From Bacteroidales bacterium (GTDB lineage Bacteria > Bacteroidota > Bacteroidia > Bacteroidales > UBA12077), in the NCBI GenBank assembly GCA_019038645.1, contig JAHOYT010000022.1, positions 998 to 64,997 of the forward strand: a DNA stretch of 64,000 nucleotides. Direction: 5' to 3'. The notes beneath the pieces were generated by a model, which saw nothing but the letters and a program-made list of their open reading frames with translations, searched no databases and was not told the DNA's origin. The translations under genes were made by a program, and so were the position numbers. Numbering within the stretch: position 1 is the stretch's first letter; every line of letters begins with the position of its first letter. This document shows positions 25,270 through 32,076 of this stretch, one piece after another.

Positions 25270-26397
25270 TTACTTTTTTATCAATTTAATAACCTTTAAA
25301 GCTAAATCTAAAAATACGATTTTATTATATGCATTCATTTCAATATCGGAATGAGCGCAGTTTAATGCTTCATAAATCTGAGAAACATTTTCCTGATTAA
25401 TAAACTGAGAAAATTTCTCTGAAAACTCTAATTCCTGCTTCGTAAGATATACCAGCTCTCTATTTTCAATGTTAAGCATAAAGTTATCGCGTATAAGCCT
25501 AAGTGTATATGATAAAAAGTTCTTTTGTTTTTCCCGTCCTATTCTGGAAATTTCATCAACCCAGTCGATTATTTCAATAACTTTTCGCTGATAAGATAAG
25601 CGCATGAATTGTGTAAACTGATCAAAATTATAATTATCTTCTTCAGTTGAATTTATCAAATTTTGTACATTTAAATAATTGCCGTTTGCCAGATGAGTTA
25701 TATCACTGGCCTTTTCAGGAGATAACCCAAACCTGTCGCAAAGTGCACTTCGCATACTTTCATTATCAATTTTAGGAATTTTTATTAATTGAGTTCTTGA
25801 AAGTATGGTTGGTAATATTTGTTCTGAATTTTCAGATACCAGTAAAAAAAGAGTTTTTGCCGGTGGCTCCTCAATAAACTTCAATAATTTATTTGCAGCA
25901 AAAGCATTCATTTTTTCCGGCAACCAAATAATCATTATTTTATAATCAGATTCAAAAGTTTTCAGATTCAGTTTCTTTAAAATCTCAGAACTTTCGTTCT
26001 TGCTAATAATTCCCTGTTTGTTCTCAACATCAATTATTTCATACCACTTGTTTTGATTTATATATGGGTTTTCAATAATTGTTTCGCGCCATTGCGCAAT
26101 ATAATCATCACTAACGGGATTTTTCTTAACAGCTTTTGAAGTTGAAACCGGATATACAAAATGCAGGTCGGGATGTACTAGTTTATGAAATTTTAAACAA
26201 GAAACGCAAACTCCGCAGGAATCCTGTTCCTGTTTATTTTCGCATGATACATATTGTGAATATGCAATAGCAAGTGCAAGATTCCCTGAACCTTCCCCTC
26301 CAAGAAATAGCTGAGCATGACTAATTCTGTTCTCCTTAATAGTATGAACTAGTTTTTCCTTTATTTTCTTATGACCAACAACTTCTTTAAACTGCAT
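25270..26397 (-). CDS. holB: DNA polymerase III delta-prime subunit
   Basis: 375 aa. The AAA+-like N-terminus HAQLFLGGEGSGNLALA is followed by a zinc-module Cys cluster (C..C..C..C), LKFIEEPP and the SRT/SRC sensor (ILSRTQ). Confidence 0.85.
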   Translation of the reverse strand: MQFKEVVGHKKIKEKLVHTIKENRISHAQLFLGGEGSGNLALAIAYSQYVSCENKQEQDSCGVCVSCLKFHKLVHPDLHFVYPVSTSKAVKKNPVSDDYIAQWRETIIENPYINQNKWYEIIDVENKQGIISKNESSEILKKLNLKTFESDYKIMIIWLPEKMNAFAANKLLKFIEEPPAKTLFLLVSENSEQILPTILSRTQLIKIPKIDNESMRSALCDRFGLSPEKASDITHLANGNYLNVQNLINSTEEDNYNFDQFTQFMRLSYQRKVIEIIDWVDEISRIGREKQKNFLSYTLRLIRDNFMLNIENRELVYLTKQELEFSEKFSQFINQENVSQIYEALNCAHSDIEMNAYNKIVFLDLALKVIKLIKK

Positions 26398-26688: not shown

Positions 26689-27879
26689 ATGTATTCTATC
26701 GACAATTATAATTTTTCAGGGAAAAAAGTACTAATGCGGGTAGACTTTAACGTCCCGTTAAACAATAAGCTTGAAATAACAGATGATACTAGAATTATTA
26801 CAGCAATTCCTACGATTCAGAAAATTATTACTGAAGGAGGATCAATAATTCTGCTTACACATTTAGGAAGACCAAAGGGGAAATTTAACGAAAAAATGTC
26901 TCTAAAAATTATTCTGCCTCATTTAAAAAAAATTCTTGGTCGTGAAATAAAATTTGCACCTGATTGTATTGGTATAAAAGCGGAAAAATTAGCTAAAAAC
27001 TTAAATCCTGGTGAAATTCTATTATTGGAAAATTTGAGATTTTATAAAGAAGAAACAGATGCTGATGAAGGTTTTGCACGGCACCTTGCCGGTCTTGGTG
27101 ATGTATATGTAAATAATGCGTTTGGTACTGCACACAGAGCACATGCCTCTACGTATACCATTGCAAAACATTTTCCTAAAAAATGCATGTTTGGTTATCT
27201 GGTCGAAAGTGAAATAAATAATATTGATAAAATTCTGCATCAGCCCTTGCATCCATTTACAGCAATTCTTGGAGGTTCAAAAGTATCCAGTAAAATTCAT
27301 ATTATTGAAGCTTTACTTGAAAAAGTTGACAATCTGATTATAGCCGGTGGAATTGGATTTACTTTTGCAAAAGCAATGGGAGGAAAAATAGGAAGCTCGT
27401 TGGTGGAAGATGCCTACCTGGATTTTGCACGTCATATTATTAGCGAAGCAAAAAATAATAATGTCAAATTATACTTACCTACGGATTGTGTTATTGCAAA
27501 TGAATTTAGAAATAGTGCAAAAATTGATCATTGCAACATCAATGAAATACCCGATGGATGGATGGGACTTGACATTGGAATTAAATCTGCAAATCGATTT
27601 GCAGAAGTAATCGAAAATTCTGAAAAAATACTTTGGAACGGCCCGATTGGTGTTTTTGAAATGCCAAGTTTTTCAATGGGAACGCTAAAAACGGCAATGT
27701 CTGTAGCCCGTGCTACAGATAAAGGAGCATTTTCCCTAATTGGTGGCGGTGATTCAATTGCTGCCGTAAATAAATATAGCTTAGCACATAAAATTAGTTA
27801 TATATCAACCGCCGGAGGTGCGTTACTGGAATACCTTGAAGGAAAAGAACTGCCAAGTATTAAAGCAATTAAGCAAAAT
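26689..27879 (+). repeat. PGK unit 1 of the intragenic tandem duplication
   Basis: It aligns end to end with 27880-29070. I estimate about 70-75% protein identity by eye, with clear DNA divergence, so it is not an assembly duplicate. Confidence 0.9.
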
Positions 27880-29073
27880 TTGACAATTGACAGATACAAT
27901 TTCGAAGGTAAAAAAGTTCTGATGCGGGTTGATTTCAATGTGCCAATGAACGAAAACAGAGAAATTACTGATGCCACAAGAATTATAACTGCTTTACCTA
28001 CTGTACGGAAAATATTAGCTGAAGGTGGTTCTGTTATATTTTTAACTCATTTAGGCAGGCCAAAAGGAAAATCTGATGAAAATCTTTCGTTAAAACATAT
28101 TCTACCGTTTTTATCAAAAGCGCTTGATAAAAAAGTGAAATTTGCGGCTAACTGCATTGGAGAAGAAGCTATAATTGCAGCTACTGTGCTCCAACCCGGA
28201 GAATGCCTGTTACTTGAAAATCTTAGATTTCATAAAGAAGAAACAGATGCAGATGAAAGCTTTGCGAAACAATTAGCCGAACTTGGAGATACTTATGTTT
28301 TTAACGCTTTCGGAACTGCACACAGAGCGCATGCTTCAACGTATACGATTAACAAATTTTTTCCTGAAGATAAAATGTTTGGTTATCTGGTGGAAAATGA
28401 AATTAACAATATTGATAAAGTTATTAAGAAAGCCAAAGCGCCGTTTACTGCCATACTTGGCGGATCAAAAGTATCTACTAAAATACAAATCATTGATGCA
28501 TTAATTGAAAAAGTTGACAATTTGATTATTGCCGGTGGAATTGCATTTACTTTTGCTAAGGCTATGGGTGGTAAAGTTGGAAATTCTCTTATAGAAGATG
28601 ATTTTATTGATGTTGCTAAAAAGATTATTACAAAAGCGCAAGAAAACAGCGTAAACCTTTATCTGCCTACGGATTGTATTATTGCGGATGAATTTAATGA
28701 TGATGCTAATATTGAGCATTGCGAAATAAATAAGATAAAAGATGGCTGGATGGGACTGGATATTGGAATAAAATCAGCCAACGAATTTACTGAAGTAATT
28801 GAAAACTCTTCTACTATACTTTGGAACGGACCAATTGGTGTATTTGAAATGTCGAATTTTTCGATGGGAACTTTAAAAATTGCCATGGCTGTTGCCCGCG
28901 CTACAGATAAAGGAGCTTTCTCGCTAATTGGTGGTGGAGACTCAATTGCTGCCGTTAACAAATATAGTCTTGCTTATAAAATAAGCTATATCTCTACTGC
29001 CGGTGGTGCTTTGCTTGAATATATTGAAGGAAAGGAATTGCCTGCGCTTAAAGCTATAAAGGAAGATATATAA
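26689..29073 (+). CDS. pgk: Tandem-fused double phosphoglycerate kinase (PGK-PGK, two complete units in one ORF)
   Basis: 794 aa. Residues 1-397 and 398-794 each form a full PGK. Both carry RVDFNVP, THLGRPKG, LLENLRF.KEE, NAFGTAHRAHAS, AILGGSKVS.KI, WNGPIGVFE, GGGDS and STAGGALLEY. There is no stop codon or frameshift at the junction (27871-27890, ...KQN|LTIDRYNF). Confidence 0.95.
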   Translation: MYSIDNYNFSGKKVLMRVDFNVPLNNKLEITDDTRIITAIPTIQKIITEGGSIILLTHLGRPKGKFNEKMSLKIILPHLKKILGREIKFAPDCIGIKAEKLAKNLNPGEILLLENLRFYKEETDADEGFARHLAGLGDVYVNNAFGTAHRAHASTYTIAKHFPKKCMFGYLVESEINNIDKILHQPLHPFTAILGGSKVSSKIHIIEALLEKVDNLIIAGGIGFTFAKAMGGKIGSSLVEDAYLDFARHIISEAKNNNVKLYLPTDCVIANEFRNSAKIDHCNINEIPDGWMGLDIGIKSANRFAEVIENSEKILWNGPIGVFEMPSFSMGTLKTAMSVARATDKGAFSLIGGGDSIAAVNKYSLAHKISYISTAGGALLEYLEGKELPSIKAIKQNLTIDRYNFEGKKVLMRVDFNVPMNENREITDATRIITALPTVRKILAEGGSVIFLTHLGRPKGKSDENLSLKHILPFLSKALDKKVKFAANCIGEEAIIAATVLQPGECLLLENLRFHKEETDADESFAKQLAELGDTYVFNAFGTAHRAHASTYTINKFFPEDKMFGYLVENEINNIDKVIKKAKAPFTAILGGSKVSTKIQIIDALIEKVDNLIIAGGIAFTFAKAMGGKVGNSLIEDDFIDVAKKIITKAQENSVNLYLPTDCIIADEFNDDANIEHCEINKIKDGWMGLDIGIKSANEFTEVIENSSTILWNGPIGVFEMSNFSMGTLKIAMAVARATDKGAFSLIGGGDSIAAVNKYSLAYKISYISTAGGALLEYIEGKELPALKAIKEDI
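27880..29070 (+). repeat. PGK unit 2 of the intragenic tandem duplication
   Basis: It begins with a TTG codon (27880-27882) at the position equivalent to codon 2 of unit 1. It ends ...LKAIKEDI followed by a stop. Confidence 0.9.
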
Positions 29074-29095
29074 GAACCATATTAAATCGTTCAAA

Positions 29096-29134
29096 TTAGG
29101 ATCACGAATTAAAGTGATTCTAATTTTATTGCTT
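29096..29134 (+). terminator. Candidate intrinsic terminator after the PGK-PGK gene
   Basis: 10-bp stem TTAGGATCAC / GTGATTCTAA (one G-U pair), 8-nt loop, followed by TTTTATTGCTT. Confidence 0.45.
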
Positions 29135-29191
29135 AAAAAACAATTTTGAAGTAAATTGTGTTCCCTTTCTTTAATTAATTTCTAATTCAAC

Positions 29192-29197
29192 AGGAGG
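29192..29197 (+). promoter_or_regulatory. Canonical Shine-Dalgarno sequence AGGAGG, 5 nt upstream of the ATG at 29203
   Basis: The sequence reads CAGGAGGTAAAAATG. None of the other ~43 start regions in this window has a comparable purine-rich SD. Confidence 0.6.
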
Positions 29198-29202
29198 TAA
29201 AA

Positions 29203-30489
29203 ATGATTGACAAATATAATATTCCATTAATACAGGATGCAGATCTTAACGGTAAGGTAGTGTTGGTTCGTGTTGATCATAATGTGGTAAAAAAAGGGAT
29301 TATTCATGATCCGTACAGAATTGATGCTACCATCGGAACATTGTATCATATTAATGCAAAAGGAGGCAAAATAATTTTAATGTCGCATGTTGGACGGCCA
29401 AGGGACAAAAAAACCGGAGACATTACAATCGGAAAGGACACATCGGTAGAACCAATTGTTGAATACCTCAGAAATAAACTTCATATCAGCATGAAAATTC
29501 CTGATTTTTATCCTCATGAAAATAAAGGATACATTGGAATTGAAACATCAATAAATCACTCAATCCGCGAATTGAAAGAAGGTAAAATAGACGGAATTTA
29601 CTTACCAAATACACGTTGGTTTCAGGGCGAAGAGTCAAAAGATTCTGATATGGATCGTTTTGCAAATCAGCTTGCCGGATTAGCAGACATATTTGTTAAT
29701 GACGCATTCGGATCGTGGCAGCCTCATGCTTCTACTATTGGAGTAAATAAATATTTACCGTCTTATGCAGGATTCTTAATGCAAAAGGAAATTGAAAACC
29801 TTGAGCGAATTTATAGCCCACAATCCCCTTTTATTGCTGTTGTGGCAGGTTCAAAATTTGATACAAAGATTGATTCTTTATATGCTTTGATTAAAAAAGC
29901 TGATTATCTGGTTTTAGGAGGTGTTATTTATAATGCATATTTATATGCAAAATATGGTATCGAGATAAAAGGTATTTCACAAGATGATGTAGCTCATGCA
30001 AAAAAATTTGTAGAATTCAGCGAACAACATCCCGGCAAATTAATTGAGCTTCCGTTTATTATTGAATCAGACACACTGGAAGGAAAATTTGAAGGGAAAA
30101 ATCGTGTCCATAATATTCATGAATTAAAGCCCGGAACAAAACTAAATTATGTTCTTGATGTAGCAAAAGAATCATTTTACGAAGATAAAATTCATAAAAT
30201 TTTCTCAACGGCGCGAACAGTATTTGTTAATGCTGTAATGGGTTTCACGCCACATTTCAACGAAGGAACAATTGCCCTGGATGAATTAATTGATGAAAAT
30301 ATTGAGGCAGTAAAACTTTACGGCGGCGGTGATACAATGCAGGAACTAAAAAGATTATTACCGGGATTATACATCGTTGCTCTCGACAGCCCTAAGTACT
30401 ACATCTTTACAGGTGGGGGAGCTGTTTTAAAAGCAATTCAGGAAGGAACAACTTTAGGAATTGAGCCCGTAAAGGTTTTAACAAAATAA
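29203..30489 (+). CDS. Divergent phosphoglycerate-kinase-fold protein (PGK-like kinase, substrate uncertain)
   Basis: 428 aa. It retains RVDHNV, SHVGRPRD, NTRWFQGEE, VAGSKFDTKI, GGGDTMQE and FTGGGAVL. AFGTAHRAH is replaced by AFGSWQPH, and WNGPxGVFE by VNAVMGFTPHFNE. Confidence 0.75.
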   Translation: MIDKYNIPLIQDADLNGKVVLVRVDHNVVKKGIIHDPYRIDATIGTLYHINAKGGKIILMSHVGRPRDKKTGDITIGKDTSVEPIVEYLRNKLHISMKIPDFYPHENKGYIGIETSINHSIRELKEGKIDGIYLPNTRWFQGEESKDSDMDRFANQLAGLADIFVNDAFGSWQPHASTIGVNKYLPSYAGFLMQKEIENLERIYSPQSPFIAVVAGSKFDTKIDSLYALIKKADYLVLGGVIYNAYLYAKYGIEIKGISQDDVAHAKKFVEFSEQHPGKLIELPFIIESDTLEGKFEGKNRVHNIHELKPGTKLNYVLDVAKESFYEDKIHKIFSTARTVFVNAVMGFTPHFNEGTIALDELIDENIEAVKLYGGGDTMQELKRLLPGLYIVALDSPKYYIFTGGGAVLKAIQEGTTLGIEPVKVLTK

Positions 30490-30738: not shown

Positions 30739-32076
30739 ATGAAAGCTTTTAAGGCATACGACATTCGGGGAATATATAACGAAGATTTTAATAAAGATGA
30801 TGCTTATAAAATAGGGTATTTCTTACCCGAACTTTTACAGGCTGATAATGTTTTAGTTGGCAGGGATGTACGAATTTCATCTGATGAAATATTTGAATAT
30901 CTTGCTCAGGGAATTGTCGATAGCGGCGCAAACGTTTATAACATTGGCATCTCTACGACTCCAATGGTATATTACATAACTGCAAAACATAAATTTGCTG
31001 CTTCGGTGCAAATTACTGCATCGCACAATTCACGTGAATATAACGGAATGAAAATTTCAAAATCGAATGCTTTGCCTGTTGGTTTTGATACAGGCTTAAA
31101 AGAGCTTCTCGAAATGATACAAACCCGTGAAGTTGTGATTGCCGATAAAAAAGGGAAAATAGTTGATTATAAAGTTAAAGGCGAATATGTTGAATTTTTA
31201 AAGACTTATGTTCAGGATTATTCTGACCTTAAAATGGCCGTAGATTGTTCAAACGGCATGGCCGGATTACTAATTAAAAAACTATTGGGGAGAAAACCTG
31301 TTTACTTATTTGAGGAACTTGACGGCAGTTTCCCAAATCATGAACCAAATCCTTTAATTGAAGAAAATGTTGCTGATCTTAAAAAAACAGTATTAAGTGA
31401 AAAATGCGATATCGGAGTTATTTTCGATGGCGATGCCGATCGGGTAATGTTTGTTGACGAAAAAGGACAGTTTATTTCTCCTGATTTAATTATTGGGCTT
31501 ATGGCTCATTATTTTCTTGAAAAAGAAAAAGGTGCTGTTCTTGAAGATATTCGTACATCGAAAGCTGTTAAAAAGTATGTTGAAAAGCTGGGAGGCAAAA
31601 TGCATACCTGGCGCGTGGGAAGAGCTTATGCTGCGCCAAAATTAAGAGAGATTAAAGGTATTTATGGTGGTGAGCTGGCTGGTCATTATTATTTTCGCGA
31701 TTTCTTTTATTCCGATTCAGGTATTTTAGCGGCATTAATCGTATTAAATCTTCTTGTACGATTTAAAAAAGAAGGAAAAACCATGTCGGAGCTAATTTCT
31801 GATATCAGCAAATATGCAAATTCCGGCGAAATCAATTTTAAAATTGTACAGAAACAGGAAGCTATGGAGGCTTTAAAAGATTATTTTGTTGCCGAAGAAG
31901 AGCCTATGGAAATTCTTGATTTTGATGGCTATCGTCTTGAATTTAAGGATTGGTGGTTTAATGTTCGCCCTTCGAATACTGAACCTTATTTGCGATTATT
32001 AGCCGAAGCTGATAATGAGGAAATCCTTAAAACAAAGTTAGCAGATATTAAAACGATTCTTAAGAAGTTTAAATAA
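30739..32076 (+). CDS. Phosphomannomutase / phosphoglucomutase (alpha-D-phosphohexomutase family)
   Basis: 445 aa. Active-site serine loop TASHNSREYNGMK, metal loop FDGDADR, sugar loop GGELAGH, and the C-terminal phosphate-binding motif RPSNTEPYLR. Confidence 0.9.
   Translation: MKAFKAYDIRGIYNEDFNKDDAYKIGYFLPELLQADNVLVGRDVRISSDEIFEYLAQGIVDSGANVYNIGISTTPMVYYITAKHKFAASVQITASHNSREYNGMKISKSNALPVGFDTGLKELLEMIQTREVVIADKKGKIVDYKVKGEYVEFLKTYVQDYSDLKMAVDCSNGMAGLLIKKLLGRKPVYLFEELDGSFPNHEPNPLIEENVADLKKTVLSEKCDIGVIFDGDADRVMFVDEKGQFISPDLIIGLMAHYFLEKEKGAVLEDIRTSKAVKKYVEKLGGKMHTWRVGRAYAAPKLREIKGIYGGELAGHYYFRDFFYSDSGILAALIVLNLLVRFKKEGKTMSELISDISKYANSGEINFKIVQKQEAMEALKDYFVAEEEPMEILDFDGYRLEFKDWWFNVRPSNTEPYLRLLAEADNEEILKTKLADIKTILKKFK

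Follow-up and report, generated by a model that had tools for sequence, protein, structure and literature searches.

The window analyzed in this study is a stretch of 64,000 nucleotides (nt) from a Bacteroidales bacterium (GTDB lineage UBA12077; GenBank assembly GCA_019038645.1, contig JAHOYT010000022.1, forward-strand positions 998 to 64,997). Its GC content is 32.5%. At positions 26689..29073 of the + strand, stop codon included, a single open reading frame (ORF) with an ATG start encodes a protein of 794 amino acids (aa). The protein consists of two tandem full-length phosphoglycerate kinase (PGK; EC 2.7.2.3) units, and the gene is referred to herein as pgk-pgk. No internal stop codon was found in this ORF. 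Unit 1 (residues 1-397; 26689..27879, +) extends from the initiator Met through the position of the last codon in single PGKs. Unit 2 (residues 398-794; 27880..29070, +) starts where codon 2 of a single PGK would be and contains the key residues, including K594. The protein therefore departs from the usual PGK form, which is a single-unit chain of ~45 kDa.

The Pfam family PF00162 (PGK) was matched twice and at full length within the 794-aa protein (E=2.6e-298; total score of 988 bits against a cutoff of 27). The best matching stretch covers residues 4-386 and profile positions 1-379 of 379. PGKs of the PDB match each half with E values down to 1e-116, and each unit is 46-48% identical to the PGKs of G. 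stearothermophilus (1PHP) and T. maritima (1VPE). The first-pass annotation, which was made from the DNA letters alone, had described two full-length PGKs in one ORF and had listed the hallmark motifs of the enzyme. The intact ORF and the two full-length PF00162 matches bear out the description, and every motif listed was found twice. Faint matches to PF06962 (rRNA methylase) and to NCBIfam MnmM at residues 23-78 were judged spurious; none of them has an individual domain that reaches significance, and they fall within the N-domain of PGK. The same faint PF06962/MnmM match is precomputed for many members of the family and is probably a resemblance between Rossmann-like folds.

The junction of the two units lies at 27871..27891 (+), where K-Q-N is followed in frame by L-T-I-D without a stop codon or linker (DNA AAG CAA AAT / TTG ACA ATT, with the slash marking the unit boundary). 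When the two units were aligned, 293/395 residues (74%) were identical with 0 gaps. The alignment has an offset of one residue, and residue 3 of unit 1 pairs with residue 2 of unit 2. The offset and the junction DNA confirm that unit 2 joins seamlessly at its codon-2 equivalent. The DNA of the two units is 72.5% identical (78/88/51% for codon positions 1, 2 and 3), and no identical run in register exceeds 19 nt. Non-synonymous divergence (dN) between the units is 0.19 and synonymous divergence (dS) is about 1.2-1.5, which is near saturation; dN/dS is 0.13-0.16. By NG86, dS is 1.48 and dN/dS is 0.13. Inter-unit identity was also measured in blocks of 40 residues, and it ranged over 0.57-0.80 in the N-domain (mean ~0.70) and 0.53-0.90 in the C-domain (mean ~0.78). 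These measurements agree with what had been judged by eye, namely halves of about 70-75% protein identity, many DNA differences between them, and an N-domain more diverged than the C-domain.

As the first-pass annotation had suggested, the structure of the full protein was predicted. An AlphaFold2 model of the 794-aa protein was built from an alignment of 87 sequences (A1). The mean predicted local distance difference test (pLDDT) score was 83.8 and the predicted template modelling (pTM) score was 0.68, and both units were modelled as confident PGK folds. The segment at the junction, residues 385-403, corresponds to the last helix of unit 1 and the start of unit 2. It was modelled as coil with pLDDT <50, although the corresponding ends of the other unit form helices. 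When the model was compared with the PDB via Foldseek, template modelling (TM) scores normalised to the target were 0.84-0.91 with 1PHP, 1VPE, 3Q3V and 2IE8. No solved chain covering both units was found in this comparison, the query-normalised TM being <=0.47, and no PDB sequence of more than 511 residues was matched.

Distribution and ancestry of the fused gene

How widespread double PGKs are had been raised as a question from the start. A protein search found at least 120 clusters (90% identity) of fused proteins of 791-799 aa, with 100% query coverage and 62-91% identity to the window protein. A further protein search added several dozen fused clusters. The sources are NCBI, JGI, ENA and Logan assemblies. 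Most of the clusters are unnamed or carry the plain label 'phosphoglycerate kinase', and the named ones come from Bacteroidales, Marinilabiliales or Bacteroidota metagenome-assembled genomes (MAGs). In a scan of one genome per GTDB species, the ~2.4-kb fused form was present in 26 genomes among the matches listed. Nearly all of these carry the label of uncultured Bacteroidales MAGs, together with one Marinilabiliales, one Bacteroidetes and one Acetofilamentum sp. The chromosome-level MAG OY781043.1 (3.94 Mb) is among them, and members of the fused family were also found on contigs of 0.47, 0.93 and 4.6 Mb. According to the record titles, the MAGs come from varied environmental samples. The next-best matches after the fused genomes are other Bacteroidota with a single pgk of ~1.19 kb.

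The junction is open in frame and in an identical register in 25/25 junctions (AIKQx/x-[ST]-x-D), and no frameshift or stop was found in the fused gene of these 25 genomes. The units are 397 + 397 aa long in most genomes and 396-400 aa in a few more distant ones. One 411-kb contig (Bacteroidetes bacterium GWF2_33_16) is represented by three independent assemblies (L083-L085), which have identical DNA and an intact ORF of 795 codons. In one of them, L084 (GCA_001768565.1, MEOE01000023.1, 1480-3867), NCBI calls only a 384-aa PGK from an internal Met, on the same DNA as L083 and L085. A comparison of this call with the intact ORF indicates that annotation can hide the doubled architecture. Because pipelines label the protein plainly as 'phosphoglycerate kinase' or truncate it to one unit, the architecture goes unseen in most metabolic reconstructions made for these Bacteroidales of sediments and digesters.

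Phylogenetic analysis was performed to relate the halves to single PGKs. A neighbour-joining tree with corrected distances and 200 bootstraps was built from 106 sequences. Among them were the N and C halves of fused genes, each entered separately, together with 53 single PGKs of Bacteroidota and 3 fragments from contig ends. The fused halves all group in one clade with a bootstrap of 100, and every genuine single PGK lies outside it. The single clade indicates that the fusion arose within the lineage and not by acquisition of a foreign second pgk. The holB gene (DNA polymerase III delta'; 25270..26397, -) is divergent from pgk-pgk and served as a synteny anchor. It is found upstream not only of the fused gene but also of single pgk genes in many related Bacteroidota genomes, and this places the fusion at the ancestral pgk locus and indicates an origin in situ.

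Inside the fused clade, the halves group by lineage and not as all N halves against all C halves. In group A (the window and L001-L013), monophyly holds for the N halves (91%) and for the C halves (95%), and these two sets are sister groups (82%). The pattern is the same in group B, a distant subclade (64%). For L014-L016, the N half of each genome is paired with its own C half, with weak support. In the group B fused genes L017-L022 and L027, unit 1 has markedly longer branches, unlike in the window subclade. Within a single protein, the two halves are 56-59% identical in group B, at the low end, and 73-77% in group A, at the high end; the median over 113 fused proteins is 72%.

The relationship between groups A and B was further analyzed by quartets along the alignment. 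Within columns 1-200, the orthologous topology was the commonest in three sliding windows (46, 56 and 53 of 84) and roughly tied or second in the others. Within columns 201-395, the within-lineage topology was found in 80-84 of 84 quartets. The orthologous topology was also found within the subclades, for L011 against the rest of group A (11/11) and for L024 against group B (7/7). Judged by distance methods only, the pattern and the common junction suggest, without proving, a single ancestral fusion and later bouts of intragenic gene conversion that affected mainly the C-terminal domains. Repeated independent duplications inside the Bacteroidales clade are less likely. A single fusion is preferred because of the shared junction register and unit lengths, the orthologous topology being commonest in the N-terminal part, and the orthologous topologies within subclades. 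Gene conversion would also account for the C-domain being the more similar half. Given these signs of concerted evolution, the 74% identity of the halves does not simply date the duplication.

The origin of the junction was examined by comparison with the single PGKs of relatives, which are 395-398 aa long and run from 'MKNID...' to '...KAIREG'. Unit 2 carries one extra C-terminal residue relative to them. Two routes fit the junction equally well. In the first, a tandem pair of genes lost the stop codon, the spacer and the ATG between them. In the second, codons 2-397 were duplicated in tandem within one gene, so that a gene of 398 codons comes to encode residues 1-397 and then 2-398. This single-step route is at least as parsimonious. 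The earlier statement that the ancestral stop, spacer and ATG are gone is therefore right about the codon-2 junction, and the two-gene intermediate that it assumed is not required, since the one-step duplication yields the same product.

A possible case of such an event at an early stage is the unrelated P0400 (L086, 6001-8370; GCA_029782595.1). This 789-aa PGK consists of MNFN, codons 5-395 twice, and DNK, and its 1173-bp copies have 0 mismatches. It is found in a Firmicutes-like cggR-gap-pgk-tpi-pgm-eno operon. Either the intragenic duplication in P0400 is very recent or the repeat is an artefact of assembly. Its identical repeats contrast with the deeply diverged halves of pgk-pgk in the window. 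The neighbours of P0400 look odd too: tpi encodes 379 aa, and enolase is split into two calls.

Two probably equivalent units and the alternative readings

The catalytic residues were compared in an alignment of 113 full-length fused proteins and are given in human PGK numbering. The equivalents of D23, N25, R38, H62, R65, R122, H169 and R170, which form the site for 3-phosphoglycerate (3-PG) and 1,3-bisphosphoglycerate (1,3-BPG), are invariant in both units. The nucleotide and transfer-site equivalents K219, E343 and D374 (GGGD[ST]) are likewise invariant in both units. The equivalent of N336 is invariant in unit 2 and is Asn in 111/113 unit-1 sequences. In the C-domains of the window protein, the site residues are K198/K594 (human K215), K202/K598 (K219), N317/N713 (N336) and E324/E720 (E343), and GGGDS is present twice. 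All the key residues checked are present in both units of the window protein, in agreement with the earlier view that both units keep their catalytic residues.

The selection on each unit was then measured. The alignment has 85 invariant columns for each unit, and column-by-column entropy in one unit correlates with that in the other (r=0.88). No family-wide unit-diagnostic position, that is, one with a conservation of 90% or more in each unit but with different residues in the two, was found among the 113 proteins. In group A only 5 differences between the units are fixed, and they are conservative (Y2/L, L55/F, I182/V, K313/T and Q396/E). Comparisons of orthologs gave a dN/dS of 0.034-0.091 in unit 1 and of 0.035-0.116 in unit 2. 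These low values show strong purifying selection on each unit and fit the claim of a selectively maintained duplication. By these sequence measures, neither unit is decaying or carries a signature of specialisation.

We consider it probable, at roughly 75%, that the housekeeping PGK of this uncultured low-GC Bacteroidales clade is a covalent pseudo-dimer with two equivalent and independent sites, which arose by one in-situ duplication and was then shaped by purifying selection and gene conversion. The product would be a polypeptide of ~87 kDa with two complete and functionally equivalent PGK units, each with its own N-terminal 3-PG/1,3-BPG domain, hinge and C-terminal nucleotide domain. Each unit would catalyze 1,3-bisphosphoglycerate + ADP <-> 3-phosphoglycerate + ATP by hinge-bending closure, independently of the other. 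The tandem duplication would have occurred once, before the clade diversified and at the original site of pgk, most simply with codons 2-397. Afterwards, strong purifying selection would have acted on both units, with occasional gene conversion mainly in the C-terminal domains.

Several points weigh against this interpretation. The K215 equivalent is Gln in unit 2 only in 8/113 clusters (P0068, P0070, P0071, P0073, P0074, P0076, P0077 and P0078), which are 71-74% identical to the window protein and keep the other key residues. This sublineage indicates that full unit-2 activity is not indispensable everywhere, and the change from Lys to Gln may be a first step toward an inactive or regulatory second unit. 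Unit 1 of group B gathers ~1.7x more non-synonymous change than unit 2. The activity of either unit is predicted from its residues. The low pLDDT at the junction and the pTM of 0.68 mean that the predicted arrangement of the units and the packing of the junction helix are of low confidence. The tree is a neighbour-joining tree, and the deep nodes inside the fused clade are modestly supported (64-82%). The adjoining gene for a divergent PGK paralogue (PGK3, described below) could supply or modify PGK function, and its presence means that the fused gene does not encode the sole PGK-family protein in these cells. Lastly, the selective advantage is at the stage of candidates, which are doubled dosage or stability, or else a neutral ratchet.

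An alternative is that the two units have been sub- or neo-functionalised, or have become structurally interdependent, to give a regulated or cooperative PGK. The units could differ in reaction direction (glycolytic or gluconeogenic), nucleotide or regulation, or be linked by allostery or a swap of terminal helices. In its favour are the 8 clusters in which unit 2 alone has Gln at the position of the catalytic Lys, and the faster evolution of unit 1 in group B. The junction also uses the C-helix of unit 1 and the N-terminus of unit 2, which are normally packed on the N-domain, and AlphaFold2 is unsure at this place. There is also precedent. In the mammalian 100-kDa hexokinases and eukaryotic phosphofructokinase (PFK), a whole glycolytic enzyme was duplicated in tandem and fused. 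Both halves are catalytic in hexokinase II, and one half became regulatory in hexokinase I and PFK. No such divergence of a half into regulation is visible in pgk-pgk, however. All key residues are present in both units of the window protein and of 105/113 family members, no position is diagnostic of a unit across the family, and the fixed differences in the window subclade are few and conservative. Furthermore, dN/dS is nearly identical for both units, and gene conversion between units opposes their divergence. We therefore regard specialisation or coupling, the foremost of the rival readings, as unlikely.

A specific form of coupling was also considered. The linkage itself could have made the units interdependent, through swapped junction helices or an N-domain interface. 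Hinge closure would then be coupled, and the enzyme could be cooperative, show half-of-the-sites behaviour or, in some sublineages, combine a catalytic with a regulatory unit. This proposal is speculative and rather improbable. If true, it would be a mode of control unknown for PGK, a textbook monomeric, two-domain, hinge-bending enzyme, and the sublineage with Gln would represent the first step to a pseudo-enzyme regulatory unit.

A second alternative is that the ORF yields two PGKs of ~43 kDa, by internal initiation near the junction or by proteolysis of a linker, and that the fusion serves the co-expression of two isozymes. The junction codon of the window, TTG, is a permitted bacterial start, the low-confidence segment at residues 385-403 of the AlphaFold2 model looks linker-like, and the L084 annotation gives only the 384-aa product from an internal Met. 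However, TTG is the junction codon in only 2/25 genomes; the other genomes have TTA, CTA, CTT, TTT, TTC, TAT or CAC, none of which is a start codon. Separate translation of unit 2 from the junction is thus not a conserved feature, and TTG 27880, which had been pointed out as a possible internal start, is incidental, since the codon cannot initiate in 23/25 orthologs. Internal initiation at this TTG was rejected on the same ground. The start of the 384-aa call lies 14 residues inside unit 2, so that conserved residues of the N-terminus are lost, and the call was made on DNA identical to that of assemblies with the full ORF called. The sequence at the junction shows the conservation of the C-terminal helix of an ordinary PGK, unlike a linker. 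The junction codons argue for translation as a single ~87-kDa polypeptide, and the two-product model is very unlikely.

A third alternative is a neutral duplicate on its way to decay, with one redundant unit degenerating into a pseudo-enzyme domain. Such a course could be read from the Lys-to-Gln sublineage and from the faster unit 1 in group B. Against it stand the dN/dS of 0.03-0.12 in both units, the saturated dS between the units, which makes the fusion old, the 0 frameshifts or stops in 25 genomes, and the 85 invariant columns in each unit. For the window gene, decay is contradicted by these sequence data and is scarcely credible. The last alternative, an assembly artefact or two ordinary adjacent pgk genes whose stop was lost by a local error, has in its favour that tandem repeats are prone to mis-assembly, as the exact repeat of P0400 may show, but it is effectively refuted, because the halves differ at 27.5% of DNA positions with short common runs and the in-frame junction is kept in 25/25 cases across independent assemblies, Mb-scale contigs included, and across proteins only 62-91% identical to that of the window. 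The same evidence upholds the earlier claim of a real and old duplication.

The doubled PGK is of interest on several counts. The fused enzyme is a natural system for asking if covalent pairing alters the stability, dynamics or kinetics of a hinge-bending enzyme. It would be a bacterial parallel to the duplication and fusion of hexokinase and phosphofructokinase in which both halves are still intact, with one sublineage that may be starting to lose the catalytic Lys. Hexokinase II is the closest analogue to what the pgk-pgk residues suggest, although it belongs to a different enzyme family and domain of life. The gene would also be a clean case of concerted evolution within one essential gene. 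If the units are merely independent, the biological consequence is modest.

Comparison with other PGKs and fusion proteins

PGK is generally a monomer of ~45 kDa (PMC7729029). The exceptions given in this review are the dimers of P. woesei and M. fervidus, the tetramer of Sulfolobus and the homodimer of C. glutamicum, as well as two kinds of fusion, namely the Thermotoga fusion of PGK with triose-phosphate isomerase (TIM) and the kinetoplastid PGKs joined to other domains. Dimerisation has been proposed as a stabilising adaptation (PMC7729029). A PGK-PGK enzyme is not mentioned in the review, and no relevant paper was found in full-text literature searches for PGK-PGK or for tandem, double, fused or duplicated PGK. 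The first-pass annotation knew of no described PGK-PGK enzyme. This holds for the literature; the architecture itself is not rare in its clade and can already be found in public databases.

Compared with canonical monomeric PGKs such as 1PHP and 1VPE, each unit of the window protein is alike in its full-length PF00162 match, site residues and predicted fold. The canonical enzymes have one unit of ~45 kDa, whereas the window protein has two units covalently joined without a linker in 794 aa. The oligomeric PGKs of P. woesei, M. fervidus, C. glutamicum and Sulfolobus solfataricus also bring more than one PGK unit into a particle. They do so with separate ~45-kDa chains and mostly in hyperthermophiles, whereas the link in the window protein is covalent and genetic, in organisms with relatives known as MAGs from varied environments. 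In the Thermotoga PGK-TIM (fus; NF010569), as in the window protein, PGK is part of a larger bacterial fusion polypeptide. The partner is TIM in the former, which makes it bifunctional, and a second PGK in the latter, which is a homo-fusion. Membership of NF010569 was rejected because the protein has no TIM domain and no PF00121 match. Profile positions 5-394 of 645 were matched twice, and the score of 984 bits passes the cutoff only by summing the two PGK units.

The seamless junction can be compared with circular permutation. The engineered, circularly permuted yeast PGK 1FW8 aligns across the junction (query residues 69-461), which indicates that the N- and C-termini of PGK can be joined without destroying the fold. 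The termini of PGK lie close together, and the alignment over the junction is consistent with this. Natural circular permutation is classically presumed to pass through a tandem duplicate, and pgk-pgk would be a natural example of such an intermediate. 1FW8 is an engineered single unit, whereas the window protein keeps both complete units.

Doubled PGKs are rare, as found by an exhaustive HMMER search of 1.84 billion cluster representatives. The family of the window protein was represented there by P0241 and fragments. The other matches were P0244 (797 aa) and two mollusc proteins, P0248 (1031 aa, Bulinus truncatus) and P0250 (1918 aa, Aplysia californica). P0244 belongs to a family of 7 clusters (P0244 and P0393-P0398; 797-799 aa) from a bacterium with 68% GC. 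Its gene is chromosomal and lies upstream of tpiA (L081, 8001-10394, on a 358-kb ENA contig). The halves of P0244 are 72% identical in protein and 77% in DNA, with a dN/dS of 0.39. Its junction, ALTV/LPFRT, is seamless, and the Met is replaced by Leu (CTG). The P0244 family thus shares the seamless design of the window protein, but it is far smaller and has a higher dN/dS between the halves. P0244 is ~43% identical to the window protein, and this low identity clearly points to an independent origin of a doubled bacterial PGK.

Other multi-PGK entries are P0464 from Amphidinium carterae (2090 aa), protist transcripts of 732-787 aa and plant models of 865-909 aa. Among eukaryotic proteins of 865-2090 aa, two to four or more PGK-like units are seen in P0248/P0392 (Bulinus truncatus), P0250, P0464 and plants. 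The mollusc proteins have degenerate catalytic motifs, and the plant entries P0399 and P0401-P0403 may be merged models of tandem genes. The architecture is thus recurrent and represented in databases. Among the bacterial cases, the Bacteroidales family is by far the largest and oldest, and it seems to be undescribed.

Genes and signals around the fused gene

The flanks of pgk-pgk contain ordinary Bacteroidota housekeeping genes. Upstream are gldH, a gene with a PSP1 domain, and holB, and further downstream are RNase HII and rlmN. A terminator-like hairpin with a 13-pair stem and a T-rich tail lies 20 nt past the stop codon (29093..29126, +). It was found by a consensus scan only, in which 6 sites were found in the region against 3.5 expected. 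The hairpin suggests that pgk-pgk may be its own transcription unit. An Rfam scan of the window gave no match, hence no known riboswitch or leader. A scan for sigma-70 promoters gave fewer matches than shuffled sequence and is uninformative, since Bacteroidota use different promoter motifs.

The gene downstream of the hairpin, PGK3 (29203..30489, +), encodes a divergent PGK paralogue of 428 aa (PF00162, E=3.8e-82), which is not part of the fusion and is ~30% identical to either unit of pgk-pgk. Its family was compared over 120 clusters of 76-94% identity, which are labelled Bacteroidales, Desulfobacterales, Desulfobulbaceae and, for one, an Altiarchaeales bin. The equivalents of human D23, N25, R38, H62, R65, R122, K215, K219 and N336, as well as GGGDT, are kept in 120/120. 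Also in 120/120, His169 is replaced by Trp and Arg170 by Gln, the Glu343 position is missing, and three to four short insertions are present. From these residues, PGK3 could be an active kinase with an altered acceptor site, and the labels suggest that it has possibly spread horizontally. Directly 5' of its ATG is AGGAGG (29188-29205), a strong Shine-Dalgarno-like sequence that is atypical for Bacteroidota and absent upstream of the fused pgk. Its presence is compatible with a foreign origin of PGK3.

A mutase gene of the PGM/PMM family (30739..32076, +; 445 aa, with all four Pfam domains) is found downstream of PGK3. In the Desulfobacterales genome L082, PGK3 stands alone and the mutase is not adjacent. 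In group A, the mutase and PGK3 are co-conserved even where an endonuclease gene lies between pgk-pgk and PGK3. The mutase was found beside PGK3 in the window and in L001, L004-L006, L008-L010, L013 and L083-L085.

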